This document shows positions 12,647 to 61,768 of a stretch of DNA of 64,000 nt, in pieces. Source of the stretch: Thermoanaerobaculia bacterium (GTDB lineage: Bacteria > Acidobacteriota > Thermoanaerobaculia > Multivoradales > UBA5704); the NCBI GenBank assembly GCA_036275055.1, contig DASUEN010000171.1, positions 42,307-106,306 on the forward strand. Reading direction: 5' to 3'. A program made the translations under genes and the position numbers. The notes under the pieces are model-generated. The model saw only the letters and a list, made by a program, of their open reading frames with translations. It ran no database searches and was not told the DNA's origin. Position 1 is the first letter of the stretch. Every line of letters starts with the position of its first letter.

Positions 12647-13099
12647 TCAAGTCGAAGCGAGCCAGTTCTCAACCCTCAGGGTGGGATCGATGCGCCGGAG
12701 ATCAGAATAGATCCCGTCGGCGCTGATGAGCGTGCAGCCTTCTGTGATGGCCGTGGCTGCCACCATGACGTCCATGTTATGTCTCTTGCTGGCCTTGTCG
12801 CTCAGTTGACGAAGTATCCGTAGCCGGGCTTTCAGAGTTCCGAAGAGTCGGGCGGCTTCAGGCGTGAGAGGCAGAAGAGAAAACTGATTCTGGGCATCTG
12901 AGATCCGTCGTCGGATCGCTGGTTTCATCTCCTCGTCGGCATTCGCATACCCGTACTCCAGCTCGTAAATGGAGAGAATGGAGACGACGATGTCGTTAGC
13001 CTTGCCGAAGGAGGCAATCCTCCGGGTGATATTCGAGTGACCGGGGGAGAGAGGTTCGTAGAAATCGGAAAGACTGTCGGAGTCGAGTAGGAAGAGCAT
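12647..13099 (-). CDS. vapC: PIN-domain toxin (VapC family)
   Basis: 150 aa from the internal ATG: MLFLLDSDSLSDF... with a C-terminal TLISADG.. motif. Its start overlaps the antitoxin stop (TAATG). Confidence 0.8.
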   Translation of the reverse strand: MLFLLDSDSLSDFYEPLSPGHSNITRRIASFGKANDIVVSILSIYELEYGYANADEEMKPAIRRRISDAQNQFSLLPLTPEAARLFGTLKARLRILRQLSDKASKRHNMDVMVAATAITEGCTLISADGIYSDLRRIDPTLRVENWLAST

Positions 13100-13365
13100 T
13101 AACGCTCGTCGTGTGGAAAGGAAAGGTTCCGACGGAACTCTTTCCGATCCGCATCGAATTTCTTCGCGTAGCTGCCGAGAGAGAACTGCCCACTCTCGAT
13201 TCGCTGAACGAGTTGAGCCCACCGGGACGGCTCCGCCTCGGTCGGCGGAGAAGGGGGCGAGTCGGCCAGGGCTGCTTCGACCGCCCGGGTGACGAACTCA
13301 TCACGATCGGGAAGTTGCCGGACCCGTTCGGCGATCTCGTCGGGAAGGGAGACGATGAGCTTCAT
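13099..13365 (-). CDS. Ribbon-helix-helix (CopG/VapB-like) antitoxin
   Basis: 88 aa: MKLIVSLPDEIAERVRQLP (RHH beta-strand pattern). It lies immediately upstream of vapC and overlaps it. Confidence 0.65.
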   Translation of the reverse strand: MKLIVSLPDEIAERVRQLPDRDEFVTRAVEAALADSPPSPPTEAEPSRWAQLVQRIESGQFSLGSYAKKFDADRKEFRRNLSFPHDER

Positions 13366-28977: not shown

Positions 28978-30176
28978 GATTCCGGGTGAAGCGGGTGGAA
29001 GGCGCCCCTGTGGTGGCCGTCCGCCTCTACCTGCAGGCGGGCTCCCGGGAAGAGGTCCTTCCCGGCCAGGCCCTGGTGACCGGCCGCATGCTCACCGAAG
29101 GAACCCGCAGCCGCGACTGGCGGCGGATCGCCGAAGAGGCCGAGAGCAAGGGGATGTCCCTCGAAAGCACCGGCCATTTCGAGTCGATCGGCGTCTCCGT
29201 CGATGCCCTGGCCAAGGACTGGGAGCTGGCCCTGGAATGGGCGGTCGAGATCCTGCTCGACCCCATCTTCCCCGCCGACCGTGCGGCCTGGACGGCCCGC
29301 CAGGCCGCGGCCGAGCTGGAGAGCCTGGCGGATCAGCCGGACGTCAAGACGATGTGGGGATTCCTGGAGCAGCTCTACACGCCCCATCCCCGATGCCGCC
29401 CCACCCATGGCACCGTGGAGAGCCTCCTCAGCCTCACCCCCGGCGACTGCGCCGCGTTCCATCAGCGGTCGCAGGCGCACGGCATCGTGGCCGCCGTGGC
29501 CGGCGTGGTGGACGAGGATGCCGTGCGCGACCGCCTCATCCGTCTGCTCGGCCGTCCGGGCGTGGACGCCGAGCGCTACCCGCCGCCGTCGGCGCCTGTG
29601 GGCCTCGGCCCCCGGCACGTCGTCTCCCTCGAAGCGAGCGATCAGGCCCATCTCTACATCGGCCACCTCACCGTTCCCCGCCGCCATCCGGACTACGCGG
29701 CCCTGGAGCTGCTGGCCGTCGTCCTCGGCTCGGGCGCTGGGCTGACCGGGCGGATTCCGGCCCGTATCCGCGAGCGCGAAGGGCTCGCCTACACCGCCTT
29801 CGCGCAGACCGTCTCCGGCGCCGGCTTCGACGCCGGCCGCCTGCTGACCTACGTGGGCACCTCGGCCTCCACCGTCGAGCAGGCCGAGCGGGGCGTGGTG
29901 GAGGAGATCACCCGACTGGTGGCGGACGGCATCGAGGATTCTGAGTTGGAAGAGGCCCGCGCCTACCTCCTCGGCCGTGAGCCCTTCCGCCACGAGACCG
30001 CCCGTCAATGGGCCGACCTGCTCGTCGAAGCCGAGGAGTACGACCTCCCCTTGGACGACTTCGCGCACCGCAAGACCGAGCTCGAAGCGCTCGACCGCGC
30101 CGCCGTGGAAGCCGCCGCCCGCCGCCATCTCCATCCGGAGGCGCTGCAAGTGACGGTGGGGATGCCGGAGGCGTGA
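28974..30176 (+). CDS. M16 family peptidase, non-catalytic (no HxxEH) partner subunit
   Basis: TTG 28974 (TTGA overlap) or GTG 28986. M16 fold pattern, with no zinc motif visible. Confidence 0.8.
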   Translation: MRFRVKRVEGAPVVAVRLYLQAGSREEVLPGQALVTGRMLTEGTRSRDWRRIAEEAESKGMSLESTGHFESIGVSVDALAKDWELALEWAVEILLDPIFPADRAAWTARQAAAELESLADQPDVKTMWGFLEQLYTPHPRCRPTHGTVESLLSLTPGDCAAFHQRSQAHGIVAAVAGVVDEDAVRDRLIRLLGRPGVDAERYPPPSAPVGLGPRHVVSLEASDQAHLYIGHLTVPRRHPDYAALELLAVVLGSGAGLTGRIPARIREREGLAYTAFAQTVSGAGFDAGRLLTYVGTSASTVEQAERGVVEEITRLVADGIEDSELEEARAYLLGREPFRHETARQWADLLVEAEEYDLPLDDFAHRKTELEALDRAAVEAAARRHLHPEALQVTVGMPEA

Positions 30177-30280
30177 AGGGCGTCTCGGGGGGCGGCCTTG
30201 GAGCAAAAGGCAGCGCTGGTGAGACATTAGAGAGCCCTCATGGGACATTGCGGTGTGCTGTGGACGGGAGGAGGAGCGCC

Positions 30281-30385
30281 CCGCAATGTACCACGAACGT
30301 CCCCCAATGTGCCAAGAGCACGCCGCAATGTGCCACGGGCGCACCGCTATGTGCCCTGAGCATTCCGCAATGTTCCACGGAGGGA
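30281..30385. repeat. Five exact-phase 21-bp direct repeats with core CCGCAATGTGCCAC (iteron-like)
   Basis: Cores begin at 30281, 30302, 30323, 30344 and 30365. A further in-phase copy lies at 30428 (+63 bp) and an inverted copy ACATTGCGG at 30245-30253. Spacers between cores are not conserved. Confidence 0.85.
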
Positions 30386-30467
30386 CATCAGGTCAGGAGA
30401 GGCGCTGAGGGCTCCGGATGGAGCGCGCCGCAATGTCTCTTCGCCGCTCGCGAAGCGAGGAGAGGCG

Positions 30468-30878
30468 CTATTCCTTCGCTTCCGGGGAGGCCGAAAGCTT
30501 GCGGTAGACCGTCAGCCGCTTTCCGCTGCCTTCCTCCGCCACTCCGAGGACGCCGTCGAAGATCAGCTCACGCAGGGCGCGATGGAGAGAAGACCGTCCA
30601 GGCTCACGGTCGAGCACGCGGCAGACGTGGTTCTTGGTGAATTCCTCCGGTAGCTGGTCCATCGCCGCCTTCACCTCCCTGTAGAGCGACCAGGGTTCTT
30701 GCTTGCCGGCGGGCAGGGACGCTACGGTGGCCTCCGAGTCCTCCGGCTCGCCCTGAGCCGCCCAGAGCGCCTCCAGGGCCTGAGCCTCCGTCCGATGCGC
30801 CGCCTCCAGCAGCTCGACCCCGGCGCGCAGCCGCTCGTCGAGCTCGCGTTTGCGCTGGACGTACTCGGAATGTCTCAT
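30468..30878 (-). CDS. Hypothetical protein: N-terminal coiled coil plus C-terminal winged-helix-like segment
   Basis: 136 aa from ATG 30878: MRHSEYVQRKRELDERL...; the C-terminus NHVCRVLDREPGRSSLHRALRELIFDGVLGVAEEGSGKRLTVYRK looks wHTH-like. No family recognised. Confidence 0.5.
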   Translation of the reverse strand: MRHSEYVQRKRELDERLRAGVELLEAAHRTEAQALEALWAAQGEPEDSEATVASLPAGKQEPWSLYREVKAAMDQLPEEFTKNHVCRVLDREPGRSSLHRALRELIFDGVLGVAEEGSGKRLTVYRKLSASPEAKE

Positions 30879-31020
30879 GGGACAAAGAGTGGAACAAATA
30901 GGGGGATGGGGGCAAGGGGGGGCGCCTCTCGGAGCCGACCGCGCCTCCATCGTAGATTGGCAAGTGGAGATGCTGCCCGCGACGAGGAGGAAGGAGTAGA
31001 ATGACCGAGAGGATAAGCCC

Positions 31021-31212
31021 ATGAGCCGGAATGCTGCCAGGAACTATCGGAAAGAGATGCCAGGTCCTAACGACGCGACCTCTCCCACGCGCGTTGCGGA
31101 CGATTCGAAGGAGATCAGGCGCAGGCAACTCGCCGAGGTTTTGAGCCAGCAGGGAAAGATTGATTTGGATATCGACCCAGAGAGGCTCGTTCAGCTTCGC
31201 TCCGCTCAATGA
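31021..31212 (+). CDS. VapB-like antitoxin remnant (C-terminal toxin-binding tail recognisable, N-terminus atypical)
   Basis: 63 aa. The C-terminus GKIDLDIDPERLVQLRSAQ resembles the W/x-GDLDxMR tail of VapB antitoxins. An ATGA overlap joins it to the PIN fragment. Confidence 0.4.
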   Translation: MSRNAARNYRKEMPGPNDATSPTRVADDSKEIRRRQLAEVLSQQGKIDLDIDPERLVQLRSAQ

Positions 31213-31295
31213 TCCTCGTCGACAGCTCCGCGCTCATCGAGTACTACAGACCTTCCGGCTCAGCGGGGACTCGCACTGCTGTGGCGGCGGCTTAG
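31209..31295 (+). pseudogene. vapC: Truncated vapC (PIN toxin), N-terminal 28 codons only
   Basis: MILVDSSALIEYYRPSGSAGTRTAVAAA* carries the canonical PIN N-terminus (ILVDSS). It ends at TAG 31293-31295, exactly where GC content drops. Confidence 0.6.
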
Positions 31296-31296
31296 G

Positions 31297-31623
31297 CTAT
31301 CTCCTAGAGGCAACCCGCTGCAGAACCTTCCCGATTTTCTCCAAAGCCTGCCCGATCTCGCCTAGTAACAGGCGATCCTCTCCGGTAAAGACCTGTTGAG
31401 TGATAATGAGCGGTTCTTTGCGGGGTCTCCCTTTCCTTGCCAATCCTTCCTCCCGGAGCTTGAGGAAGACTGGTATGGCTTCCGGAGGATAGCGGCGTTT
31501 TCGTCCCTCTCCCTGGCAGGGGATGCGAGCCGCGTATTGACTAGCGTATTTTGAAAGAGTTGTAGCGTTGATGCCGGTCTTTTCGGCAATCTCTGTCAGC
31601 GTAAGCAACGTGTCCGATTGCAT
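31297..31623 (-). CDS. MerR/excisionase-type helix-turn-helix DNA-binding protein
   Basis: ATG 31623 follows AGGAG. LLTLTEIAEKTGINATTLSKYASQY...RKRRYPPEAIPVFLKLRE is a MerR-like HTH followed by a wing. Confidence 0.7.
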   Translation of the reverse strand: MQSDTLLTLTEIAEKTGINATTLSKYASQYAARIPCQGEGRKRRYPPEAIPVFLKLREEGLARKGRPRKEPLIITQQVFTGEDRLLLGEIGQALEKIGKVLQRVASRR

Positions 31624-31640
31624 GGCGTTCTCTCCTAACT

Positions 31641-32996
31641 TCACAAAGAGGGTGTCCCACCTTCAAATTTCACCCCACAAGGTCGGGGTATCCAGGTTGC
31701 TCTTAGATGAGATGAGATGACTTTTGGATAGTCATTTGTAAGGAAGGTGCCATCGGCGACAGCATTCACCAAAGACGCCCAAAGTTGTAGGCTATCTCTT
31801 GTAAGCCCCCATTCGCCCAACTGTCGACCTACTTTCTTGGCTAACGAGATCGCCTCATGAGACTCCTGAAGCAGCAGGCGGACTTGTATGCGGTCTATTG
31901 CCAGCAGCGTAGCATCGAAATACAGATGGGCTTGCATGTAGGTATTGGCAGCATTGTCAAGGAATCTCTTGGCGTACTGATACGCTTGATTTGCAAGAGC
32001 GATCCGACCTCTCAGCCAAAGATAATCCCCGGTAATTTGTGGATCAGAATGGCGAGCATATAAATAAGTGTAGGTCTCAACTATGGAACCTGCTTCTTCC
32101 ACCTCTCCCAAGCTCAGGTAGCAACGGGCTAGGGTATGGCGTGCTGATAACTCCGCAATGTCAAGCTTTCCTTCTTTGTCAATCTGAATTAGGACCGCTA
32201 GCCCCTCTTCCGCGATTTCGATAGCGTGGGCTGGATCAACGTGAGTCACGATATACGCCTGTTGAATGAGCGTAAGGGCGACACCTTTGAGATCTCCCAC
32301 TTTGCGAAACATAGATATAACTCGGGTTAGCAGGGCTGCTCCCTCCAAGAAGAGTCCAATGGCGTATAGCAAGTTTGCGGTATTGACTCCTAACATAGCG
32401 TCCTCAAGCATGTCGCCCGAACCGTGCGTCAGTTCACGCCGTGCCAACTCCAAGGCTTCTGCCGCTCCCGTCAAGTCTCCTGCGCGAGTTTTTACCATTC
32501 CAACATTAGAGAACGCCTGTCCTCTGCAATCATGCACCAATCCGGGTCCGTATTGGTCTTCAGGTAACCTGAGTGCTATTTCTAAGGCTAGCTCGGCTAG
32601 GTCTACGCCATATAGAACATCCACTCGGCAAGCGATCCGTACCAATTTCGTAACGTGCGCGAAGAATTCGATGGTCTGGAGAAGGGGATTTCCTCGTACG
32701 ACCTGGAGGCGAAACGGGTGTTCAGATTCTTTTAGCCAGTCCCACAACTCAGCGGCCTTGCCCTTCTGCTCTTCGCGCTCGATCTGAGCGAGCTGCGCAG
32801 CAAATGATGCACGAGAGAAAGCCCGATCGTAACTGCTTGTGAGATAAGCATCCCTAAAGGACTGAAGCACCGCTCCGCATCGTTGGCATTGGGTCAAGAG
32901 GTGAGCCACCACGGACTGGCACTCCTCCCTATTGTTTAGGGAGCCGGCAAGGAACAGAGATAGGGACTCGACAGAGGGGTGGTCCGTACGCGGCAT
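31641..32996 (-). CDS. Soluble protein with N-terminal anti-sigma-type zinc finger (zf-HC2/ZAS-like) and a ~380-aa TPR-like helical repeat domain
   Basis: 451 aa with an AGGAG RBS. The N-terminus SLSLFLAGSLNNREECQSVVAHLLTQCQRCGAVL follows the anti-sigma zinc-finger pattern (H-x4-C-x2-C here). No TM segment. Repeated helical hairpins run throughout. Confidence 0.75.
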   Translation of the reverse strand: MPRTDHPSVESLSLFLAGSLNNREECQSVVAHLLTQCQRCGAVLQSFRDAYLTSSYDRAFSRASFAAQLAQIEREEQKGKAAELWDWLKESEHPFRLQVVRGNPLLQTIEFFAHVTKLVRIACRVDVLYGVDLAELALEIALRLPEDQYGPGLVHDCRGQAFSNVGMVKTRAGDLTGAAEALELARRELTHGSGDMLEDAMLGVNTANLLYAIGLFLEGAALLTRVISMFRKVGDLKGVALTLIQQAYIVTHVDPAHAIEIAEEGLAVLIQIDKEGKLDIAELSARHTLARCYLSLGEVEEAGSIVETYTYLYARHSDPQITGDYLWLRGRIALANQAYQYAKRFLDNAANTYMQAHLYFDATLLAIDRIQVRLLLQESHEAISLAKKVGRQLGEWGLTRDSLQLWASLVNAVADGTFLTNDYPKVISSHLRATWIPRPCGVKFEGGTPSL

Positions 32997-33052
32997 GAGA
33001 ATAGGCTCCTATTGGGTAATTCGCCGCAGTATACTTCATTCTTGTCAAGAAA

Positions 33053-33076
33053 GCCCCAGGTACTTTCCCCTGGGGC
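33053..33076 (-). terminator. Hairpin with short U-tract between the peptide gene and the ZAS-TPR gene (partial terminator)
   Basis: The minus strand reads GCCCCAGG-GGAAAGTA-CCTGGGGC followed by TTTCTTGAC, 15 nt after the peptide gene stop. Confidence 0.5.
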
Positions 33077-33090
33077 CGGAGACTTGGCCA

Positions 33091-33384
33091 CTAGCTGTGG
33101 GTGCATCCCCAAGGGTCAATCGATCCCCTGATATCGCAGGTCGGTGAGTCCTGTTGAGATGAGATGGAGGCAGTCCCGCATAGCCCCCACGGATCAATGC
33201 TACCCCGTAGGCAGGTTGCCTCAGTGAGCTTGACCAGTACGGAGGTAAGACGGTCCCATGCTGAGATTGCAGTAGGACGGGCTGCCGCCCCCCTTCCCCC
33301 TCTTGGCTTCTGGGCTTCCAACGGGCTACAGAGGGTCAAAGACAGGGCTAAGGCGCCGAGAGCAAAGGCTATGCGCTTCCTCAT
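33091..33384 (-). CDS. Small secreted peptide precursor with two Cys-bracketed RGSIDPWG repeats
   Basis: 97 aa with a GGAAGGA RBS. Signal peptide MRKRIAFALGALALSLTLCSPLEA|Q. Mature part contains TCLRGSIDPWGLC and TCDIRGSIDPWGC. Confidence 0.6.
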   Translation of the reverse strand: MRKRIAFALGALALSLTLCSPLEAQKPRGGRGAAARPTAISAWDRLTSVLVKLTEATCLRGSIDPWGLCGTASISSQQDSPTCDIRGSIDPWGCTHS

Positions 33385-33799
33385 GGGTGCATCCTTCCGA
33401 GGGGGCGGACTTACCTAACCCGGAATGGGATAGGAGTTAGGGCATTCCCCTCCATTTGGACAGTGAGGAAGCTACTCCGTTGGGGCGACATAGGGATAAT
33501 CTCTAAACGTCACAACCTACATGGTTTATCGCGCTAAAACATCGGGCTGCTTGTTTTAACGGGCAGCTTTGAGTCTGGTTCCGTGCTGTCGGAGAGGAAC
33601 AAGATTTCGAGGGGAAGACACCTTGACGCGGCTGGAGGGCGGCTGGGAAAAGAGGGCCGAGGTGATGAGGGTCTTGGGGAGGTGGAAAGCCGGCTGGGAG
33701 CAGACGCCCGGCAGACGGTGCGGCGGGAAGGGAACCATCCCGAGCACATCCCCCAGCGTTCCCTGCTACTCTTGAGGACATCCTGATTTCGAGGTCCGG

Positions 33800-34432
33800 A
33801 TGTCCGACGCTGACGCAGCCATTCAGGCGATCGTCGCCGATCTCCAGGCGGGGCGGGCCGTCGAGGAGGGCTTTCGTCTCCTCTGCGAGCGCTTTCACCG
33901 CCCGGTGTACAGGTTCTTCGCCCGGCGCGGCTTCCCCGAGGCCGACTGCTTCGACCTAACCCAGGAGACATTCCTTGGGATCTATAGGGGGATCGGGTCG
34001 TTCCGGCGCGATGCCCCGTTCACGACCTGGCTGTTCAAGGTGGCGACCAATGCCTACCGCAAGCGTCTGCGCCTGCAGGGCGCGGGAAAGCGGGCCGGCT
34101 ACGAGGTCCCCTTGAGCTCCCAGCCTGAGGAAGAGGACGATCGCCCCGCCTTCCAGCCCGTGGCGCCGGGTCCTCTTCCCGAGGCCTCACTGCTTCAGGC
34201 CGAGCGCGCCCGGCTGCTGCGCGAGGCCGTCCACGAGTTGCCGGACCAGATGCGGAAGTGCTTGATCTTGAACGTTTACCATGAGCTCAAGATGAGGGAG
34301 ATCGGCCAATTGCTCCACCTGTCGCCCGAGACGGTGAAGGTCCACCTCTTCCAGGCGCGGCGGCGGCTGCACAAGGCACTGGGCCCCCTCTTCGCGAGCT
34401 CCATGCCGGACGGAGGCGAGGCATCGTCATGA
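33800..34432 (+). CDS. ECF (group 4) RNA polymerase sigma factor
   Basis: Region 2 is FDLTQETFLGIY...TWLFKVATN. Region 4 is DQMRKCLILNVYHELKMREIGQLLHLSPETVKVHLFQARRRL. Confidence 0.9.
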   Translation: MSDADAAIQAIVADLQAGRAVEEGFRLLCERFHRPVYRFFARRGFPEADCFDLTQETFLGIYRGIGSFRRDAPFTTWLFKVATNAYRKRLRLQGAGKRAGYEVPLSSQPEEEDDRPAFQPVAPGPLPEASLLQAERARLLREAVHELPDQMRKCLILNVYHELKMREIGQLLHLSPETVKVHLFQARRRLHKALGPLFASSMPDGGEASS

Positions 34433-35238
34433 GCGATCAAGAGCCCGAGATCCGCCAGGCCGTGGAGGAGTGGACGGCCGAGACCGGCGGGGCCGGCGAG
34501 GGCGGCGGCGAGCACCCCGACGCGGAAACGCTGGCCGCCTACCATACCCGCGAGCTGCCGCCCGCGGCGGAGCAGCGCATCCAGGATCACCTCCTGCTCT
34601 GCCGCGAGTGCGCCGGGTTGCTGCTCGACCTCGAAGAGCTGGACGACCCGGATTTCGGCCGCGAGATCGAGGTTCCCGCGGGCACGGGAGAGGCCCTCTG
34701 GGACGGCCTGCGGCAGGAGATCACCCGCAAGGAGCCGGCGCCACCGGCGGCTGCGGTGATCCCGTTCCCCTCCCGCCCGCGCCCGGCTCCGCCGCTCTGG
34801 ATCTCCTCCCTGGTCGCCGCCCTCGTGGTGGCCGTGATCGGCCTCTCCGTCTGGGTCGCGTCGCTGCGCCGGACCGTGGGGGAGCTGTCCCGGCCGGAGG
34901 TCAACTCCACGGTGCTGGACCTCGTCCCCCGCGGCATCGGGCAGCGGGAAGGGGGGGAGGTACCGGCCGCCGTGGTGCCGTCCGGCTCCCGCATGGTCAC
35001 GCTCATCCTGAGCCCTGCCCGGCGTGGGGATTTCCAGGATTACGAAGCGGAGATCGCGCGCGCCGCCGGCGGGGCGGTGTGGCGGGAGCGGGGGCTGCGG
35101 CCGAACGACTACGGCTCGTTCAGCCTGACCCTGCCGCGCCGGGCCCTCGGCACCGGCGAGCACCGGCTCCGCCTGTTCGGCATCCGGAATGGCGCCCGGG
35201 AGGTCCTCGGCGAGTATGCGTTGCGGCTCGCGCCCTGA
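34429..35238 (+). CDS. Zinc-finger (ZAS, H-x3-C-x2-C) transmembrane anti-sigma factor
   Basis: ATGA overlap with the sigma gene. HLLLCRECAGLL motif; single TM LWISSLVAALVVAVIGLSVWVA; extracytoplasmic domain of about 125 aa. Confidence 0.8.
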   Translation: MSDQEPEIRQAVEEWTAETGGAGEGGGEHPDAETLAAYHTRELPPAAEQRIQDHLLLCRECAGLLLDLEELDDPDFGREIEVPAGTGEALWDGLRQEITRKEPAPPAAAVIPFPSRPRPAPPLWISSLVAALVVAVIGLSVWVASLRRTVGELSRPEVNSTVLDLVPRGIGQREGGEVPAAVVPSGSRMVTLILSPARRGDFQDYEAEIARAAGGAVWRERGLRPNDYGSFSLTLPRRALGTGEHRLRLFGIRNGAREVLGEYALRLAP

Positions 35239-38188
35239 GACGGCGGCGCTCCTGGCTGCCGCTCTCCTGCTCGCCGGCTGCGAGCGGTCGCCGCCGGTGC
35301 ACAAGCCGGCGGCGGGTTCCCCCGCGCCGCGCGTCGCTCCAGCCCGCCCTGCCGCCGCCCGGCTCCTTCGCCTCGCTCCGGGAGTCCTCGACGAAGTCGT
35401 GCTGAAGGGCGGCGAGGAAAGCGCCTATCTCCTCGATCTCGCTACGGGTCAGTACGCTGGCCTGGTGGTCGATCAGCAGGGGATCGACGTGGAGGTGAGG
35501 CTGCGGGCGCCCGGCGGGAAGATCGTGGCCGCCGTCGACAGCCTCAACGGCATGATCGGGCCTGAGCCCCTGCCGTTCGTGGCCGAGACCGGCGGACGCT
35601 TCCGGCTGGAGATCGGGTCGTCCTCTCGTGGAGCACCAGCCGGCCGCTACGTCCTGCGTCTCGAAGCCTTGCGCCCGGCGACCGCGCGAGACCGCGCCCT
35701 GGTGGAGGCCGAGCGGGAGCTGGCGGAAGGGGAACGGCTCTACCAAGCGGGCACTCCCGCGTCTCTTCAGGCGGCCCTGGCGCGCGAGAAAGAGGTCCTC
35801 GCTCGCTTCCGCGTTCTCGGCCTGCCTGCACGAGAGGCCGAAGCTCTGTTCAGTCTGGGAAGTATCCACGAGAAACTGGACGCGGGGGAGGCTGCCGCCA
35901 GTGACTTCCGGCAGGCCCTGGAGATCTTCAGCGGCCTGGGGGACGAGGCGCGGGCGGGGGTCACACTCGGCAATCTCGGTACGTTGGAGCGCGCTCAAAG
36001 CGGCCGGCGGGCACTCACCTTACTTCGCCAGGCACTCCCTTTGCTCCGCCGGTCCCACAACCGGCTGGAAGAGGCCGCGACCCTGAGCAACATTGGTAAG
36101 GCTGCCATGGAGGTTGGCGAAACCGGCGAGGCCCTCGCGGCTTTCGAGCAGGCGATCTCTCTTGAGCGCTCCCTGGGCGATCGAGCCGACGAGGGGAAAT
36201 TGTTGCTCAATCTCGGTTTATTGGAGACCGACCTGGGCCAGACGTCACGGGCTCTCGATCACCTCGGCCAGGCCGTGGCACTGCTGCAGGCCGCCGGGGA
36301 TCGCCGCGGGCTGGGCGTGGCCCTGGCCCGGACGGGGATGGCTCTTGCGGACGGCGGCCACCCCCGTGGAGAGGTCGTGGCGGCTTTTCAGCGCGCCCTC
36401 CGGCTCCAGCGCGAAATTGGAGACCGGCGCCGGGAAGCCGTGACACTCACCAATCTGGGCTGGTACTACCATCAGCAAGGAGAGATCCGGCAGGCGGAAC
36501 AGATTTTCCGTGAGACGCTCGCCATCTTCCAGGCCCGTGGCGATCGCGGCGAGGAGGCCGGAGCCCTCGTCAACCTGGGCGGTATCGATCTGGAGCGCGG
36601 GCGTCTCGCTGAGGCCGAGAAGTCCTTTCTGCGAGCGCAGGCTCTCTTCACCGAGATCGGTGATCCTGAGGAAGAGGCCACCGCCCTGTTTTTCTTGGCA
36701 CGGGTTCGGCGCGCCGAAGGGCAGCTTGTGGCGGCCTTCACCGCCATCGAAAGCGCTGCCGCCCGCATCGAGGCGCTCCGCAGCAAACCGCCCAGCCCGG
36801 ACCTGCGCCTCACGTTCTTCGCCTCCAAACAGGATATTTATGGGCTCCGCGTCGATCTCCTGATGGAGCTTCACCAGGACGCGCAGGCTCTGATGGCCAG
36901 CGAGGAGGCGCGGGCACGCACGCTCCTCGACCTCCTGGACAAGGTGGACGTCCAGCCGGCGGGCTCCGGCACTCTACTGACCTCCCGGGAGATCCAACGG
37001 CAGGTCGTGGAGAAAGGCACGCTCCTCCTCGAATACTCCCTGGGAAAGGAGCGCAGCTTCCTGTGGGCCGTGACGCCGGAGTCGCTGGAGAGCTTCGAGC
37101 TTCCCTCACGAAAAGTGCTGGAAGAGGAAGCCCGCAACGCCGCGTTCCTCCTGGCGTCCAGCGGCCGGACCCTCGCGCGTGCGCAGACCGACCTGGCTCT
37201 GGCCGGCCTTTCCCGCCGGCTGCTCGGGCCGGCGGCTCACCGGCTGCGCGCAGCGGACCGGCTGGTGGTCGTCCCGGACGGTGCGCTCTGGGCCGTCTCC
37301 TTCGCAGCCCTGCCGGACCCCGACACTGGCGCGCCGCTCATCGCCGGCCATGAGATCGTCTCCCTCCCCTCGGCCTCGGTGCTGCCCCGGCTGCGCGCCG
37401 CCGCTGCGGGGCGGCACCCGGCAGCCGGCGCGGTCGCCGTGGTGGCCGATCCCGTCTTCAGCGCCAACGATCCGCGGGTGACGCCCCCTCCAGGGGTGCC
37501 CACGGCGGCTCCCGAGCCCCGAGGCGGCCCTGTGGCACCTTTCGCAAGGCTGCCCTTCTCCCGCGCCGAAGCGCAGGCGATCCTTTCCGTGGCTCCTCGC
37601 GAGGGGACGCTCGCAGCCCTCGACTTCGCGGCGAGCCGCGAAACCGTCCTCAGCGGCCGCCTGGCCCGGTACCGGATCGTCCACTTCGCGACCCATGCCC
37701 TCCTGAATACCGAAAACCCCGAGCTTTCGGGAGTCATGCTCTCGCAGGTCGACCCCCACGGCCGCCCGCGCGACGGTTTCCTACGGCTCGACGACGTCTA
37801 CCGGCTGAACCTTGCCGCGGACCTGGTGGTGCTTTCCGCCTGCCGGACGGCGCTCGGCCGGGAAATCCGCGGCGAGGGTCTGGTCGGCCTCACCCGGGGC
37901 TTCTTCTCGGCCGGCGCCCGCCAGGTCCTGGTCAGTCTCTGGCCGGTGGAGGACCGCGCCACCGCCGAGCTCATGCAGCGCTTCTATCTCGAGATGCTCG
38001 GCCGGGGGCGTCCGCCCGCCGCCGCTCTCCGGGAGGCGCAGATCGCGATGTGGAGAGACGAGAGCCGGCGGCCGGCCTATTACTGGGCGGGATTCACCCT
38101 CCAGGGGGATTGGCACACGGCGGATAAACCATTTTCCCCGAAGCGGATCTCTAAACCCTCCATACGGCGAACCCAATCCGGAGGATGA
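35216..38188 (+). CDS. Lipoprotein with N-terminal beta domain, TPR array and C-terminal CHAT (caspase-like) protease domain
   Basis: Lipobox LLLAGC (alternative start 35189). At least six TPR-like units (xLxNLG motifs). CHAT catalytic dyad context: IVHFATHA (His) and LVVLSACRTALG (Cys). It overlaps the anti-sigma gene by 23 nt. Confidence 0.9.
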   Translation: MRCGSRPETAALLAAALLLAGCERSPPVHKPAAGSPAPRVAPARPAAARLLRLAPGVLDEVVLKGGEESAYLLDLATGQYAGLVVDQQGIDVEVRLRAPGGKIVAAVDSLNGMIGPEPLPFVAETGGRFRLEIGSSSRGAPAGRYVLRLEALRPATARDRALVEAERELAEGERLYQAGTPASLQAALAREKEVLARFRVLGLPAREAEALFSLGSIHEKLDAGEAAASDFRQALEIFSGLGDEARAGVTLGNLGTLERAQSGRRALTLLRQALPLLRRSHNRLEEAATLSNIGKAAMEVGETGEALAAFEQAISLERSLGDRADEGKLLLNLGLLETDLGQTSRALDHLGQAVALLQAAGDRRGLGVALARTGMALADGGHPRGEVVAAFQRALRLQREIGDRRREAVTLTNLGWYYHQQGEIRQAEQIFRETLAIFQARGDRGEEAGALVNLGGIDLERGRLAEAEKSFLRAQALFTEIGDPEEEATALFFLARVRRAEGQLVAAFTAIESAAARIEALRSKPPSPDLRLTFFASKQDIYGLRVDLLMELHQDAQALMASEEARARTLLDLLDKVDVQPAGSGTLLTSREIQRQVVEKGTLLLEYSLGKERSFLWAVTPESLESFELPSRKVLEEEARNAAFLLASSGRTLARAQTDLALAGLSRRLLGPAAHRLRAADRLVVVPDGALWAVSFAALPDPDTGAPLIAGHEIVSLPSASVLPRLRAAAAGRHPAAGAVAVVADPVFSANDPRVTPPPGVPTAAPEPRGGPVAPFARLPFSRAEAQAILSVAPREGTLAALDFAASRETVLSGRLARYRIVHFATHALLNTENPELSGVMLSQVDPHGRPRDGFLRLDDVYRLNLAADLVVLSACRTALGREIRGEGLVGLTRGFFSAGARQVLVSLWPVEDRATAELMQRFYLEMLGRGRPPAAALREAQIAMWRDESRRPAYYWAGFTLQGDWHTADKPFSPKRISKPSIRRTQSGG

Positions 38189-58756: not shown

Positions 58757-60048
58757 ATGCTCATCTTGCTCAAGATTGTCGCCGCCTCGCTAGGAATGGC
58801 CGCGTTGCTGTCAAATGCAGCCAGTGCCCAAGGTCAGGGAGCTAGCGGCTCCACGAACGAATCGGTCTACCAGACCCTCGCGGAGCATGGCGTCACCGCC
58901 TCGCTCGTCTACGATGGCGAAGGATTCGCGGACCTGTCAGGTGGTGCGCGACGGGGCGCGACGTACCTCGGCAACCTGAACCTTCTGCTCACGCTTGATG
59001 GAACGCCTCGCCAGTTGGCGCGGTGCCACGGTTTTCATCGATGGCCTCGATATCCATGGGGGCCGGCCGAGCCGGTTTGCCGGGGACGCCCAGGGCGTGA
59101 GCAACATCGAAGCTGCGCCGGAATGGAAGCTCGAAGAGGCGTGGATTGAGCAGAACCTTTTCGGTAACAGGTTTTCGGCCCTGGTCGGGCTTTACGATTT
59201 GAACAGCGAGTTCTACCACCTCCACGCCGCGGACCTCTTCCTCAATTCGTCGTTCGGCATCGGCCCGGAGATCTCGCAGAGCGGTAAGGGCGGCCCGTCC
59301 GTCTTCCCGAATACGTCGGTCGGTGCCCGCTTCGAGGTCAAGCCCATGGAAGGTGTTGTGCTTCGTGGCGCCGTGCTCGACGGCGTTCCTGTGGAGCGTC
59401 CGAGTGGGAGGGAAGTTTTCGCGAAGGCCGACGGCCTGCTTATCGTCAGCGAGGCGGCTTTCCTCTATCGCCCGGCCCCGCCGGACGCGTCGCCGCGGAT
59501 GCCACACCGGTTTCTCCTGGGCCGAGAAGCGCAATTGCCTCCTTATGACGACAAACTGGCGGTCGGCGTGTGGCACTACACGTCGAGCTTCGACGACCTC
59601 GTTCGAACGCGAGAGGACGGCACGCCGCTGACCCACCAGGGAAGCTCGGGCGCGTACGTGATTCGGTGATGCGATCGTGTACAAGGAAGAGTCTGGGCGC
59701 CAGATGCGAGTGTTCGGCCAGGCCGGCCTCGGCGATTCTCGCGTGAATCGTTTCGGCCTGTATACAGGTTGCGGGGTCGACCTTGCCGGCTGGGTCCCGG
59801 GCCGCCAGCAGGATGAAATCGGATTCGCCGTGGCGGCGGCCCGCAACGGCAGCCCGTTCATCGACCAACAGCGGCAAGCGGGGCAACGCGCCGGCAGGTC
59901 CGAAGTGACTCTCGAGCTGGCGTACCGTTCCAGCGTTACTTCCTGGCTCAACGTTCAACCCGATTTGCAGTACGTCTTCAATCCGAACACCGATCCGCGA
60001 GTGGCGAATGCCTTGGTCTGTATGATCCGTATCGAAGTTTCGTTCTGA
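58757..60048 (+). pseudogene. OprB-family carbohydrate-selective porin disrupted by two +1-type frameshifts (or sequencing errors)
   Basis: Three consecutive frames carry one continuous porin. Frame 1 holds the signal peptide to ...NLNLLLTLD (to ~58996). Frame 2 holds ERLASWRGATVFIDGLDIHGG...SSGAYVI (to ~59663). Frame 3 holds (GDAI)VYKEESG...NVQPDLQYVFNPN...IRIEVSF*. C59664 is a candidate inserted base. Confidence 0.6.
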
Positions 60049-60082
60049 GCGCGTTTCCGAGAACCTGACACGCGGGCAGTGC

Positions 60083-60111
60083 TTGACATCGACGGGTCGC
60101 CGTTCTACAGT
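60083..60111 (+). promoter_or_regulatory. Sigma-70-type promoter for the Cys-rich peptide gene
   Basis: TTGACA (60083-60088), N17, TACAGT (60106-60111). A GGAGG RBS at about 60138 precedes ATG 60150. Confidence 0.45.
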
Positions 60112-60149
60112 TACAAAACAACTGTTGTTTCCCCTTCGGAGGGAACGAT

Positions 60150-60371
60150 ATGAAGAAGAAGTCGCCTTCCAAGCTCCACCTCAACCGTGAAACGCTGCGA
60201 TCCCTGACGGAGTCGGCTCTCGCCCAGATCCCGGGTGCCACCTGCAGCGCCTGCAGGACCAACGAGACCAATTGCAGTCAGACGGACCCCTGCAGCAGTC
60301 CCTGCACTGTAGAGTGCTCGAGGTACTGCCCCAGCCCCGTTCTCACAGCGGAACCTGCCGGGGGATTGTGA
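60150..60371 (+). CDS. Stand-alone precursor-like peptide (73 aa): Lys-rich leader of the KLxLNRETLRxL type plus a Cys/Ser/Thr-rich C-terminal region
   Basis: MKKKSPSKLHLNRETLRSLTESALAQIPGA|TCSACRTNETNCSQTDPCSSPCTVECSRYCPSPVLTAEPAGGL. A GC hairpin GGCCCCGAG/CTCGGGGCC (60372-60391) starts directly after the stop. Confidence 0.55.
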   Translation: MKKKSPSKLHLNRETLRSLTESALAQIPGATCSACRTNETNCSQTDPCSSPCTVECSRYCPSPVLTAEPAGGL

Positions 60372-60453
60372 GGCCCCGAGCCCTCGGGGCCCTCGCCACT
60401 CACTAGTCGCTCTCTGCTCGCCGGGGTGGGCCGGGTTCCCCCCAGTCTACTTC

Positions 60454-60483
60454 TTGACCGGAACATACCGAAAACGGTATAAT
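60454..60483 (+). promoter_or_regulatory. Sigma-70 promoter with palindromic operator for the toxin-antitoxin pair; leaderless start
   Basis: TTGACC (60454-60459), N18, TATAAT (60478-60483). The palindrome ATACCGAAAACGGTAT (60465-60480) overlaps the spacer and -10. ATG 60489 is only 5 nt after the -10. Confidence 0.5.
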
Positions 60484-60488
60484 GCGTC

Positions 60489-60872
60489 ATGGCTCGGTTC
60501 CCGACGACCACGGAAAAGCCCCTCCATTGGGTCGGCGCGTCAAAGAAGGACTTGCTGACGTTTCCTGGCGATGTGGTGGACGACTTCGGATATGCCCTGA
60601 GCGTCGTCCAGCATGGCGGTACGCCACCTTCTGCCAAGATGTGGAAGGGTGAAGGCCCGGGAGTCTTCGAGCTGGTCGAAGAGTATCGTGGCGATGCGTT
60701 CAGGGCCGTCTACACGGTGCGCTTTGAGAAGGCGGTTTATGTCCTGCACTGCTTCCAGAAGAAATCGCCCTCAGGAATGCGCACGGCTAAACAGGATATC
60801 GACCTGATCCATGAGCGCCTGAGAACGGCACAAGCAGACTATGAGGTGCGCTATGCGAGAAAAGAAGACTGA
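60489..60872 (+). CDS. RelE/ParE-superfamily toxin of the phage Gp49-like (DUF891) type
   Basis: KPLHWVGASKKDLLTFPGDVVDDFGYAL...GVFELVEEYRGDAFRAVYTVRFEKAVYVLHCFQKKS is the family hallmark. Confidence 0.8.
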   Translation: MARFPTTTEKPLHWVGASKKDLLTFPGDVVDDFGYALSVVQHGGTPPSAKMWKGEGPGVFELVEEYRGDAFRAVYTVRFEKAVYVLHCFQKKSPSGMRTAKQDIDLIHERLRTAQADYEVRYARKED

Positions 60873-61188
60873 GACGGTGGATGCTGGGAGCGGTGACGTT
60901 CTGGTGGATCTTGGTTTCCCGGATGCTGACGAGAGGAAGCTGCGTGTACAGCTAGCGATGCAGCTCAACGAGCTGATCGCAGCCTGCCGTTTGACGCAGG
61001 CCCGCGCGGCAAAGCTTTTCGGCATTCCGCAGCCCCATGTCTCGGAGCTCAAGCACTACAAGCTTAACCGGTTCTCCTCCGAACGATTGCTGCATTTCGT
61101 CACTCTCCTCGATCGTGACATCGAAATCATCATCCGGCCGAAGGCCAAGGGGCACGCATCGGGAGTCGTATTTGTGTCGGTCGCCTGA
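60853..61188 (+). CDS. XRE-family HTH antitoxin partner
   Basis: VLVDLGFPDADERKLRVQLAMQLNELIAACRLTQARAAKLFGIPQPHVSELKHYKLNRFSSERLLHFVTLL. It overlaps the toxin 3' end. Confidence 0.8.
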   Translation: MREKKTETVDAGSGDVLVDLGFPDADERKLRVQLAMQLNELIAACRLTQARAAKLFGIPQPHVSELKHYKLNRFSSERLLHFVTLLDRDIEIIIRPKAKGHASGVVFVSVA

Positions 61189-61366
61189 GCTTTCTCCGCT
61201 CTCAAGCACCGTCCGCATTCATTCCGCCCGCGGCGCGGGGCCGGAGAGGAGGAGGCGTAGCCCTGCTATCATGTCGCGATGGTTCGGTCGTTCAAGGACC
61301 GCGGTGCTGGCAGGATGAAGCCGGCTTGGCCGCGACTACAATAAGTTCTTCTTGGAGGGACCAACC

Positions 61367-61765
61367 ATGCCCAGGGCCCAAGACTGCCAATCCCACAGCG
61401 CCCACCTGGGAGTGCTGTCGACCCAGAGCTGGATTCAGACGCTTCCTGAGAAGACCGGCCACTCGCTGGAGGAGTGGATCCAACTCGTCCAGAAGGAGGG
61501 CCGCCTACGGAGATCAAGTGGCGGGACTGGCTCAAGACTGAGCACAAGCTGGATACCAACTCCGGTTGGTGGATCGCCGAGCGCTCCTTTGGCAAGGTCG
61601 TGCCCCTCGGCCTAGAAGGACACCCCCGTCACCGGCCGCCTCATCGACACCGGCAGCTTTGCCAAGAAGGACCGCATCACGCATCGTTTCGCCATCACCA
61701 CGTTGGCGGAGATTGACGGCGAGGTGCGGCGGTGGCTGAATAGGGCGTACGAGATGGATGCATAG
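61367..61765 (+). pseudogene. Degraded duplicate of the DUF4287/DUF5655 gene (1-nt deletion plus ~230-nt internal deletion)
   Basis: Nucleotide-level similarity to 58119..58742 runs from the RBS region to the stop. GAAGGAAGGGCCGCCCACGG in the intact copy is GAAGGAGGGCCGCCTACGG here (one base shorter). The segment between TTTGGCAAGG and GAAGGACACCCCCGTCACC is missing. Confidence 0.75.
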
Positions 61766-61768
61766 GTT

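Follow-up and report, generated by a model that had tools for sequence, protein, structure and literature searches.

Does a compact gene cassette of foreign base composition, found in the genome of an acidobacterium of the class Thermoanaerobaculia, encode a peptide signal together with its receptor, a kind of cell-to-cell signalling so far known only from Gram-positive bacteria? In this work, we addressed this question on a window of 64,000 nucleotides (the whole stretch of DNA analysed; assembly GCA_036275055.1, contig DASUEN010000171.1, positions 42,307 to 106,306). An initial annotation, made from the sequence alone, had described three co-oriented low-GC genes encoding a secreted Cys-loop peptide, a soluble protein combining a ZAS domain with a TPR-like domain, and a MerR-like HTH protein. 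It had proposed that they follow the logic of RRNPP-type peptide quorum sensing, and that the ZAS-TPR protein could act as a second, peptide-responsive anti-sigma factor for the divergent ECF sigma gene at 33800. We conclude that the cassette is a candidate peptide-signal/receptor module with an anti-sigma-type output, new for a diderm phylum and belonging to a large undescribed family, with peptide binding and re-import inferred only.

We first verified the gene anatomy, and the observation proved correct: all three ORFs are intact on the minus strand as described (Table 1). Base composition sets the cassette apart, as its GC content is 0.49-0.58 against 0.70-0.75 in the flanks, and its GC3 is 0.52-0.62 against 0.85-0.92 for host genes. 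The coordinates nevertheless required one correction, since the conserved unit is longer than the three genes and takes in ~245 nt upstream of the peptide gene, with a conserved ~215-nt leader.

Table 1. Position of the cassette and of its features in the 64,000-nt window
Feature	Position	Strand	Description
Conserved unit	31296-33628	-	Three genes plus upstream region, 2.3-kb similarity block
Leader/promoter region	33385-33628	-	Conserved region upstream of the peptide gene
ECF-like motif	33582-33558	-	GGAAC-N16-CGTT
Inverted repeat	33561-33532	-	CGTTAAAAC-N12-GTTTTAGCG
Inverted repeat	33529-33503	-	ATAAACC...CGTTTAG
Anti-SD element	33475-33463	-	GTAGCTTCCTCAC, complementary to the Shine-Dalgarno region
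Shine-Dalgarno region	33398-33389	-	GGAAGGATGC, with RBS GGAAGGA
Peptide gene	33091-33384	-	97-aa secreted pro-peptide (predicted)
Stem-loop	33053-33077	-	GGCCCCAGG-N8-CCTGGGGC, 13 nt after the peptide stop codon, followed by CTTTCTT
Invariant element	33028-33034	-	GTATACT/TATACT, between hairpin and receptor gene
Receptor-like gene	31641-32996	-	451-aa cytoplasmic protein (predicted), ZAS-like Zn-finger and TPR superhelix
HTH gene	31297-31623	-	108-aa MerR-type HTH protein; ATG 17 nt after the receptor stop codon, RBS AGGAGA
Flank	31021-31295	+	63-aa ORF followed by a 28-aa ORF (MILVDSSALIEYYR...) stopping exactly at the cassette boundary
Neighbouring ECF sigma gene	33800-34432		Divergent from the cassette, outside the conserved unit

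The peptide precursor has a positively charged N-terminus, a hydrophobic core (KD 1.68 over residues 5-23) and 'PLEA/QK', features of a Sec-type signal peptide, and an amphipathic W..L helix. Two C-x10-C loops (Cys58/69 and Cys83/94) each hold RGSIDPWG, as C-LRGSIDPWG-L-C and C-DIRGSIDPWG-C. Thirty homologues were found, all unannotated, and the family alignment shows invariant D, P and G. Searches of Pfam, NCBIfam and PHROGs gave no hit for the peptide.

The 451-aa protein carries H6, H32, C37 and C40, which are invariant in 49 homologues and conserved in at least 90 % of 80, then a long linker helix and a TPR superhelix of roughly 8 repeats. There is no signal peptide and no convincing TM segment, the only hydrophobic window (residues 209-227) being a charged TPR helix. 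Pfam and NCBIfam gave only generic TPR models, with weak TPR hits in Pfam, so that no sequence model of a known RRNPP family matches. The AF2 model is all-helical and confident (pLDDT 92.5), and Foldseek matched its TPR body to RapF (4i9c, TM 0.55/0.65, the best TM-score), RapJ (4gyo), NprR (5dbk) and phi3T Rap (8rsv), with TM 0.47-0.65 for RapF, RapJ and NprR. Among bacterial structures the body is closest to Rap/NprR/PlcR pheromone receptors, and every bacterial PDB neighbour in the top 50 is an RRNPP receptor, both for this protein and for its XRE-HTH-TPR homologue. However, this rests on prediction only, TPR folds are generic, and the eukaryotic LGN/Pins scored better than Rap by E-value. 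Divergence of the receptor is uniform at 32-53 % along the protein, and no hypervariable patch was seen at this depth.

Concerning the N-terminal domain, a profile of residues 1-92 hit DdvA (E = 0.004), ChrR (0.008), RslA (0.017) and the DdvA-type CHAT protein (0.03) in the PDB, with no other credible hit, the only other match being a GATA factor at E = 3.5, whereas Pfam zf-HC2 matched only 2 of 80 family members. The class I ZAS motif is H/C-x(23-26)-H-x3-C-x2-C, while the spacing in the window protein and in most members is H-x4-C, with one extra residue, H-x3-C being found in the homologue P0005 and at the related locus L014 (loci of relatives are designated L, receptor homologues P). We refer to this domain as ZAS-like.

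The 108-aa protein has an N-terminal MerR-type winged HTH (residues 6-62), which passes the Pfam MerR_1 threshold (PF13411, 22.5 bits against a cut-off of 21.6, residues 15-60), albeit by a small margin, and it also matches HTH_17 (E = 8e-5) and phrog_66 'excisionase and transcriptional regulator' (E = 5e-5). A weak match to the CarA MerR domain (2jml) and coiled-coil matches for residues 76-105 were also obtained, the latter corresponding to a C-terminal amphipathic helix suited to coiled-coil dimerisation. In contrast to MerR-family proteins, it has no effector-binding domain and carries a basic AT-hook-like RKGRPRKEP segment, and it is always encoded after a ZAS-TPR gene.

Regarding the non-coding elements, nucleotide identity of the leader is 66-80 % between loci whose receptors are ~40 % identical, and nhmmer found the leader only in loci that carry the MerR-type HTH, with which it co-occurs 1:1; leader and HTH (65-94 % identical across loci) are far better conserved than peptide and receptor. 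RNAalifold pairs the anti-SD with the SD, but only 4 pairs show compensatory changes, and the window leader alone is not more stable than shuffles (z -0.57), although that of L006 is (z -3.75). Rfam gave no match over 30000-34000. The post-peptide hairpin folds at -22.9 kcal/mol, which on its own is not significant (z -1.4), and its U-tract is weak. It is however kept at the same place in six other loci with a changed stem sequence (CCGGGGG/CCCCCGG), the stem changing in a compensatory way in L005, L006, L007 and L012, and it could be an attenuator/terminator or a stabiliser that uncouples peptide and receptor expression. A consensus sigma-70 promoter and terminator scan found no promoter, including no MerR-type promoter with its long spacer of 19-20 bp, and did not call this hairpin. 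The GTATACT/TATACT element is invariant in all 7 aligned loci while the surrounding sequence varies, and may be a -10 element of an internal promoter, a function inferred only.

In order to determine whether the three genes stay together, a point on which the initial annotation had staked its reading, we examined their synteny in relatives. The same 2.3-kb block sits in unrelated neighbourhoods in at least six other Thermoanaerobaculia contigs, with the receptor only ~40 % identical, and the three genes are syntenic in every relative of this subfamily that could be examined (L001/L002, L003, L005, L006, L007 and L012/L013). The receptor family itself is much larger, with 1326 cluster representatives at E<=1e-3, and several paralogous systems occur per genome or contig (L003; ERZ25039530). 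All taxonomically labelled relatives are Thermoanaerobaculia MAGs, the genome scan having covered close relatives only.

The two-gene core is far more widespread than the cassette, as the peptide-receptor pairing extends to distant relatives at 22-35 % identity. In 38 of 40 evaluable relatives without a sigma gene upstream, a signal-peptide gene with 2-5 repeats of [hydrophobic]-D-P-x-G lies just upstream, and 32 of 35 such ORFs fall in 9 % of the strand space (P about 2e-30). Reciprocal look-ups starting from four peptides all landed next to a receptor gene. Each of 28 peptide N-termini inspected has a charged, hydrophobic, AxA-type signal peptide, and the last repeat lies at or near the C-terminus. 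Repeats within one precursor are alike (0.59 identity at variable positions) but differ between loci (0.28), which matches tandemly duplicated Phr pro-peptides (PMC11343458). Conversely, ten evaluable sigma-linked loci have no detectable peptide gene.

Relatives also swap the output. In 22 related loci the receptor gene directly follows an ECF-like sigma gene, confirmed by Pfam, which is the canonical sigma/anti-sigma arrangement, and about five loci read peptide-sigma-receptor. The TPR part is homologous to XRE-HTH-TPR proteins (E 1e-71 to 1e-44), the homologues P0155, P0156, P0158, P0159 and P0161 having a fused XRE HTH, and one of the XRE-HTH-TPR proteins has an adjacent 3x GCG[IL]DPxGxC peptide gene. 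Finally, small XRE HTH genes abut the receptor's 3' end in L008, L011, L014 and L018.

Taken together, these data partly support the interpretation given in the initial annotation. The synteny, the family-wide pairing and the resemblance of the TPR body to RRNPP receptors support it, and a peptide-responsive soluble anti-sigma factor is a reasonable reading of the family, whereas the neighbouring ECF sigma is probably not a conserved partner. The explanation we favour, with no more than even confidence, is a self-contained, horizontally moving regulatory module. In this view, the pro-peptide would be exported by Sec, and outside the cytoplasm its two RGSIDPWG units would be bracketed by disulfides and probably cut out by proteases. 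The Rap/NprR-like TPR superhelix of the cytoplasmic receptor would bind a DPxG-containing peptide, while its N-terminal zinc-finger domain would hold a transcription factor, most likely the co-transcribed MerR-type HTH protein in this subfamily, an ECF-like sigma factor encoded immediately upstream in related subfamilies, the zinc finger being replaced by a fused XRE HTH in others. Peptide binding would switch the hold on or off, and the released factor would act on the conserved inverted repeats of the cassette's own leader, giving an autoregulatory loop, and on targets elsewhere. The hairpin and an SD-sequestering leader helix would set the peptide-to-receptor expression ratio. Our analysis establishes the gene anatomy, the synteny, the pairing across the family, the fold and profile similarities and the conservation pattern, whereas export, processing, re-import, binding of the peptide to the TPR domain, binding of the ZAS-like domain to the HTH protein or to a sigma factor, and the operator role of the leader are inferred. 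Several points weigh against this view: the receptor is cytoplasmic and the peptide exported, yet the host is a diderm and the cassette carries no importer; the mature peptide (~72 aa, or Cys-bracketed 12-mers) is unlike the short linear RRNPP pheromones; a ZAS domain is not known to sequester a MerR-type protein; and adjacency is equally expected for a regulator and its target gene.

Compared with RRNPP(A) systems of Bacillota (Rap-Phr, NprR-NprX, PlcR-PapR, PrgX, Rgg, AimR-AimP), the cassette shares a two-gene core in which a small pro-peptide gene with a Sec-type signal lies next to that of a cytoplasmic TPR receptor of 400-500 aa, active-looking units at the C-terminal end that may be tandemly duplicated, and a receptor with an N-terminal effector domain and a C-terminal TPR superhelix, a sister clade having the classical XRE-HTH+TPR architecture. 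It differs by its host, as RRNPP systems are described only from Bacillota and their mobile elements (PMC10075063, PMC9765709), by an effector domain that is an anti-sigma-type zinc finger (ZAS-like) and not an HTH or a Rap three-helix bundle, by its peptide-first gene order, and by the motif ([hydrophobic]DPxG, often Cys-bracketed) and length of the peptide. The proposed logic is that of Rap anti-activators (RapF-ComA, Rap of pLS20), TPR receptors that control transcription indirectly by sequestering a DNA-binding protein through their N-terminal domain and are released by a peptide, although the N-terminal fold and the partner type differ and the interaction is here only postulated. Relative to class I zinc-binding anti-sigma factors (RsrA, ChrR, RslA, DdvA), the protein has an N-terminal H...H-x(3-4)-C-x2-C motif that is invariant in its family, though with the deviating H-x4-C spacing, and, like RsrA, is predicted to be soluble, but its C-terminal sensor is a large TPR superhelix and the cassette carries a MerR-type HTH gene instead of a sigma gene. 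We found no such architecture described: the ECF reclassification (PMC7826278) lists TPR only as an extension of ECF42 sigmas and in a FecR-like anti-sigma factor. Literature searches likewise returned no papers on IDPNG/IDPWG-type motifs, on RRNPP in Acidobacteriota or on ZAS-TPR anti-sigma factors.

Among the alternatives, the one that survives best, although we consider it unlikely, is that the receptor-like protein and the HTH (or the sigma factor in relatives) sense some other cue and switch on the adjacent gene, whose secreted DPxG-repeat peptide would be the output, e.g. an antimicrobial, adhesive, metal/Ca-binding or interspecies signal peptide, and not the ligand. The peptide gene indeed comes first, with its own strong RBS, long leader and downstream hairpin, as with highly expressed structural or precursor genes; the mature part is long and Cys-rich; no importer is present; the sigma-linked loci lacking a peptide gene show that the receptor can exist without it; and the adjacency statistics fit this reading equally well. 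On the other hand, the block that moves contains nothing else, with no immunity, modification or transport gene, the nearest bacterial folds are peptide-binding pheromone receptors, repeats are homogenised within a precursor and diverge between loci, and the pairing survives three different output domains (ZAS, XRE HTH and sigma).

The proposal that the ZAS-TPR protein is a second, soluble anti-sigma factor for the neighbouring ECF sigma, which would itself drive the cassette's promoter and close a loop, appears improbable. The N-terminal domain is ZAS-like, relatives sit directly next to ECF-like sigma genes, and the ECF-type GGAAC-N16-CGTT is present in the window and in L012, the two subfamily loci with an adjacent ECF sigma/anti-sigma pair. 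Nevertheless, the sigma gene lies outside the conserved block, is adjacent in only 2 of 7 subfamily loci (it is absent next to the cassette in L001, L003, L005, L006 and L007) and is co-transcribed with its own membrane ZAS anti-sigma factor; the sigma is only 35 % identical to that of L012 and is unrelated to the sigma family that abuts receptor genes elsewhere. Moreover, the promoter motif was rejected as a family trait, since it is not enriched upstream of 28 other peptide genes (0-3 matches against 0.9-2.3 in shuffles).

Slightly less likely still is a secretion-coupled partner switch, in which the receptor would bind the pro-peptide before export, as ExsC binds ExsE or as FlgM is handled, so that transcription would report export flux rather than cell density. 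This would remove the re-import problem, and it is consistent with a cytoplasmic receptor and with a peptide that has a conserved amphipathic W..L helix besides the repeats, but Sec export is constitutive and fast, Cys brackets around the motif in several clades point to a function in an oxidising compartment, and C-terminal repeats with concerted evolution look like released units. Lastly, an accessory module of a mobile element or defence/addiction island (an arbitrium-like lysis-lysogeny switch or a toxin-antitoxin-like pair) is very unlikely, because, despite the low GC persisting in all copies of the subfamily, the variable contexts, the excisionase/regulator PHROG hit of the HTH and TA-like genes nearby (SocA_Panacea, DUF433 and RHH in L016/L018 and, in the window flank, a possible vapB plus truncated PIN-toxin gene that may mark an insertion or deletion scar, a reading based only on resemblance to PIN N-termini and not confirmed by Pfam), no integrase, transposase or phage gene lies in or beside the block in any locus, no toxin-like domain is present, and no relatives were found in IMG/VR viral contigs (two profile scans), GenBank phages or PLSDB plasmids.

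Genetically encoded peptide signalling with cytoplasmic TPR receptors is treated as a hallmark of Bacillota and their phages, diderm bacteria being thought to rely on small molecules instead. A bolder reading, which remains tentative and less likely than not, is that of a large, unrecognised family of peptide-pheromone systems in Acidobacteriota (class Thermoanaerobaculia), in which a secreted, genetically encoded DPxG peptide would directly gate a sigma factor or, as in this cassette, a small MerR-type DNA-binding protein, through a Rap/NprR-like receptor fused to an anti-sigma zinc-finger domain. Its output domains would be modular (sigma, trans-HTH or fused HTH) and its peptide/receptor pairs would diversify between conserved flanks; it would be the first RRNPP-like quorum-sensing family outside Gram-positive bacteria and the first peptide-gated soluble anti-sigma factor. 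If this holds, a family with at least about 150, and possibly several hundred, sequence clusters in soil Acidobacteriota follows the same two-gene logic but ends in an anti-sigma domain, which would widen the known phylogenetic range of peptide quorum sensing, add a new input type (a peptide-binding TPR) to ECF sigma/anti-sigma signalling, give a handle on regulation in an abundant but almost uncultured soil lineage, and supply compact, orthogonal peptide-switch parts for synthetic biology. If the peptide turns out to be the output and not the ligand, the family still defines a new soluble anti-sigma architecture and a new class of secreted repeat peptides.

Three co-oriented ORFs were found on the minus strand, encoding a small putative secreted peptide, a receptor-like protein and a MerR-type HTH protein (table below). 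Their base composition is clearly foreign, with a GC content of 0.49-0.58 in a background of 0.70-0.75 and a GC3 of 0.52-0.62 against 0.85-0.92 for the surrounding genes, although other ORFs of the window also have an atypically low GC3 (0.52-0.70), so that the region holds further compositional islands. The small protein has a charged N-terminus (MRKR), a hydrophobic core (KD 1.68 over residues 5-23) and PLEA/QK, and the four cysteines of its mature part bracket two copies of RGSIDPWG, as C58-C69 and C83-C94. The receptor-like protein has no signal peptide. The third protein passes the Pfam MerR_1 threshold narrowly (22.5 against 21.6 bits), also matches HTH_17 and an excisionase/regulator PHROG, and carries an AT-hook-like RKGRPRKEP segment and a C-terminal coiled-coil-like helix. 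The RBSs, the 17-nt gap and the hairpin, which lies 13 nt after the peptide stop (15 nt in the initial annotation), are otherwise as described in the initial annotation, whose observation of a low-GC three-gene cassette is confirmed.

Coordinates of the features discussed in the text (L numbers designate related loci)
Locus	Coordinates	Strand	Feature
Window	31296-33628		Block of similarity shared with related contigs
Window	33384-33091	-	Peptide gene, 97 aa
Window	32996-31641	-	Receptor-like protein gene (ZAS-like domain and TPR), 451 aa
Window	31623-31297	-	MerR-type HTH gene, 108 aa from the ATG; 115 aa from a GTG at 31644
Window	33386-33600	-	Conserved leader, ~215 nt
Window	33561-33532		First inverted repeat of the leader
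Window	33529-33503		Second inverted repeat of the leader
Window	31021-31295	+	63-aa ORF followed by a 28-aa ORF ('MILVDSSALIEYYRPSGS...')
Window	33800-34432	+	Neighbouring ECF sigma gene
Window	33800-38188	+	Trio: ECF sigma, single-pass ZAS anti-sigma factor (269 aa), TPR-CHAT protein (999 aa)
Window; L006; L026	30274-30381; 3417-3523; 3900-4098		Tandem arrays with a 21-nt period
Window	28980-30176		M16 peptidase gene
L001; L012; L018; window; L001; L008	5500-8850; 1-3316; 7278-8215; 27376-30176; 3811-5340; 8181-9368		Sortilin-Vps10/BNR and secreted-type peptidase genes near cassettes
Window	12647-13222	-	Atypically low GC3
Window	59978-63194		Atypically low GC3
L003	9792-11770	-	Second, divergent cassette
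L058; L057	1483-2052; 3186-3713		Examples for the loci with ZAS-TPR genes flanked by paralogous ECF-like sigma genes
L058	3630-3851		One-repeat peptide gene (VEIDPAGGW), downstream
L012	5371-6073		ZAS-TPR gene with an internal deletion

In order to delimit the unit, the region was compared by BLASTN with related contigs. The resulting block of similarity starts at the base after the HTH stop codon and ends ~245 nt upstream of the peptide gene, and nothing beyond either end is similar. The same block (i.e. leader, peptide, hairpin, receptor and HTH) occurs in L001/L002, L003, L005, L006, L007 and L012/L013, and partly in L004, each with different neighbours (phosphoketolase, Tex, a metallophosphatase, an S10 peptidase and others). 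Three of these are Thermoanaerobaculia MAGs, and every relative with a taxon label is from that class. In L012, an 8.8-Mb contig, residues ~60-285 of the ZAS-TPR protein are missing and the ORF is split into 110 + 135 aa whereas peptide, leader and HTH are intact, which is either decay or an assembly error. L003 additionally carries a second, divergent cassette convergent on the first, with two short peptide genes (GSGFDPLG/GGGLDPNG and GSGWDPNG/GSGADPWG) and a 450-aa ZAS-TPR gene but no HTH gene of its own, showing tandem paralogous systems in one genome. Low GC is a persistent property of this subfamily (0.53-0.59 in hosts of 0.65-0.72), while more distant family members are near host composition.

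On the left edge, the 28-aa ORF ('MILVDSSALIEYYR...') stops exactly at the block boundary. Together with the preceding 63-aa ORF it resembles vapB plus a PIN toxin gene truncated by insertion of the cassette or by a deletion, but Pfam gave no hit in support of this reading. No recombinase is in or next to any copy, and no relative was found in viral contigs, phage genomes or plasmids. Tandem arrays of 3.5-9.5 copies lie within 1-3 kb of cassettes in three unrelated loci (the window, L006 and L026), with the same period but different unit sequences. Sortilin-Vps10/BNR proteins of ~1100 aa recur near cassettes in three loci, and secreted-type peptidases lie close to three cassettes, i.e. M16 in the window (preceded by an ORF that may or may not be a second M16 subunit), S10 in L001 and S8 in L008. 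This may be coincidence or may point to processing enzymes.

An exhaustive search for homologues of the receptor-like protein returned 1326 cluster representatives at E<=1e-3 and 365 at E<=1e-10. Most of the best-scoring 150 are 400-470 aa long and matched over most of their length, and none of them carries a name beyond 'TPR repeat protein' or 'hypothetical'. Residues H6, H32, C37 and C40 are invariant in 49 sequences and conserved in at least 90% of 80, with a spacing (H-x4-C-x2-C) one residue longer than the canonical ZAS motif, although some members have H-x3-C. A profile of residues 1-92 searched against all PDB sequences returned only anti-sigma ZAS domains at E below 0.05, namely DdvA (0.004), ChrR (0.008), RslA (0.017) and a DdvA-type CHAT protein (0.03; 8rot_B), whereas Pfam zf-HC2 matched just 2 of 80 members. 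The AF2 model is confident (pLDDT 92.5, pTM 0.83) and shows three short N-terminal helices, a 50-residue helix and then a TPR superhelix. When this model was compared with the PDB using Foldseek, the eukaryotic peptide-binding LGN/Pins TPRs had the best E-values, but every bacterial hit in the top 50 was an RRNPP receptor, and the highest TM-score overall was obtained for peptide-bound RapF (4i9c, 0.55/0.65), followed by RapJ, NprR and phi3T Rap.

The small proteins encoded upstream in close and distant relatives share one plan: a signal peptide, an amphipathic W..L helix, and 2-5 repeats with the consensus [K/D]-x-x-x-x-[I/M/V/L]-D-P-[N/D/W]-G, the last repeat lying at or within a few residues of the C-terminus. 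The variable peptide positions are -5 to -1 and the x of DPxG. Several clades bracket the motif with cysteines (C..RGSIDPWG.C here, DQCSMIDPNGRC, and GCGIDPDGRC). No database names these proteins and no paper on the motif was found. Reciprocal look-ups from four peptides each landed ~100 nt upstream of a receptor gene. A metagenome scan with a profile of a different clade found 232 relatives, of which 80 loci were kept, and there are more relatives in MAGs. Among loci where the ZAS motif is visible and no sigma gene intervenes, 38 of 40 evaluable ones have a co-oriented DPxG-repeat ORF just upstream. Of 35 ORFs with two or more motifs in those loci, 32 fall in the upstream window, which represents 9% of the strand space (binomial P about 2e-30). 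All 28 non-redundant peptide N-termini inspected show a charged/hydrophobic/AxA signal peptide. Furthermore, repeats within one precursor are much more alike at the variable positions (0.59) than repeats from different loci (0.28), which is the pattern described for tandemly duplicated Phr pro-peptides (PMC11343458).

The family keeps the TPR body and the peptide partner but changes what sits at, or next to, the N-terminus. In 22 loci, a gene recognised by Pfam as Sigma70_r2 + r4_2 (ECF-type) abuts the start of the receptor gene, i.e. the canonical sigma/anti-sigma layout, and a second sigma paralogue often lies downstream. About five loci read peptide-sigma-receptor (L061, L066, L072, L085 and L097). 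In L057-L081, L089 and L098, the ZAS-TPR genes are flanked on both sides by paralogous ECF-like sigma genes, which suggests tandem sigma/anti-sigma arrays. A profile search also hit XRE-HTH+TPR proteins of ~490 aa (E 1e-71 to 1e-44), one of which (locus L010) has a convergent 3x GCG[IL]DPxGxC peptide gene immediately downstream; its AF2 model again has Rap and PlcR as its only bacterial neighbours. In L008, L011, L014 and L018, a small XRE HTH gene abuts the 3' end of the receptor gene in convergent orientation. In the subfamily of the window, a MerR-type HTH gene follows in the same orientation, 15-18 nt (L001-L007) or overlapping by 4 nt (L006, L012) downstream. Finally, one subclade (L063, L068, L075, L077, L082, L088 and L092) has a 3-5-repeat IDPDG peptide gene, then a ~100-aa ORF weakly similar to sigma region 2, for which Pfam gives no support, then a TPR protein that lacks the ZAS N-domain. 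A fused HTH in one clade and a separate transcription-factor gene beside a ZAS domain in the others provide a Rosetta-stone-type argument, suggesting that the ZAS domain recruits a transcription factor in trans.

The leader is 66-80% identical between loci whose receptors are ~40% identical, with long invariant runs such as GGAGTAGCGTCCTCAC, and is better conserved at the nucleotide level than the coding genes it precedes. Using nhmmer, it was found only in loci that carry the MerR-type HTH, and in all of them. The HTH protein itself is 65-94% identical, against 39-46% for the receptor and 44-68% for the peptide, and the window reaches 85-87% nucleotide identity with L006/L012 over the HTH gene. 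The leader holds two inverted repeats, which are candidate operators, and a segment complementary to the Shine-Dalgarno region; RNAalifold pairs this segment with the Shine-Dalgarno region, with few compensatory changes, and no match was found in Rfam. It could be an operator array, a translational control element, or both. The hairpin after the peptide gene is kept with a compensatory change of stem sequence and is followed by an invariant TATACT. Conserved flanks (leader and HTH) around a fast-diverging centre (peptide and receptor) fit either pherotype-like diversification or recombinational mosaicism.

The neighbouring ECF sigma gene, proposed in the initial annotation to encode a target of the soluble ZAS-TPR protein, is divergent from the cassette, lies outside the conserved block and is co-transcribed with its own membrane ZAS anti-sigma factor and the TPR-CHAT protein. 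This trio resembles the DdvS/DdvA system of Myxococcus, where the CHAT domain is part of the anti-sigma factor (PMC11506125). Among the other subfamily loci, only L012 has an ECF sigma/anti-sigma pair next to the leader, and its sigma is 35% identical to that of the window. These same two loci carry GGAAC-N16-CGTT in the leader, which keeps a local link possible, but the motif is not enriched upstream of other peptide genes, and the window sigma is unrelated to the sigma family that abuts receptors elsewhere. We consider this sigma as an occasional neighbour, not the partner of the module.

Our best account, held with moderate confidence, is a signal/receptor module in which the exported DPxG peptide would be the signal (candidate forms are RGSIDPWG, CLRGSIDPWGLC, CDIRGSIDPWGC and the full mature peptide), the TPR body its cytoplasmic receptor, and the conserved leader the autoregulated target, the ZAS-like domain holding a transcription factor, i.e. 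the MerR-type protein here and an ECF-like sigma elsewhere. Gene anatomy, synteny, the pairing statistics, the fold and profile similarities and the conservation pattern were established by the analysis, whereas export, processing, uptake and every binding step are inferred. The main weaknesses of this account are the absence of a known import route in a diderm, the unusual size and disulfides of the peptide, the generic nature of TPR folds, and the fact that adjacency fits a regulator/target pair equally well. The latter reading, with the peptide as output, is the main rival, although we regard it as less likely. An anti-sigma role towards the neighbouring sigma is doubtful, and pre-export partner switching of the ExsE/ExsC type is slightly more so. 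An accessory function for a mobile element is the least likely.

The interpretation given in the initial annotation is supported only in part: the peptide-receptor logic of RRNPP type and the anti-sigma nature of the second protein, which both remain inferred, are strengthened by family-wide evidence, whereas the specific link to the adjacent ECF sigma is weak. Functionally, the closest analogue is RRNPP signalling, especially Rap anti-activators that sequester a DNA-binding protein. The cassette is not a member of this group according to the tests performed, as no sequence model matches, the effector domain differs and the host phylum differs; the literature searched describes RRNPP systems only in Bacillota and their mobile elements (PMC10075063, PMC9765709). 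As an anti-sigma factor, the receptor-like protein would represent a new soluble architecture. The ECF reclassification (PMC7826278) lists TPRs only as ECF42 sigma extensions and in a FecR-like protein, and also notes that undetected soluble anti-sigma factors probably exist. On the basis of comparative genomics only, the cassette shares with known systems the combination of a peptide and a cytoplasmic TPR receptor, and departs from them by a new output domain, a new peptide motif and a new phylum.
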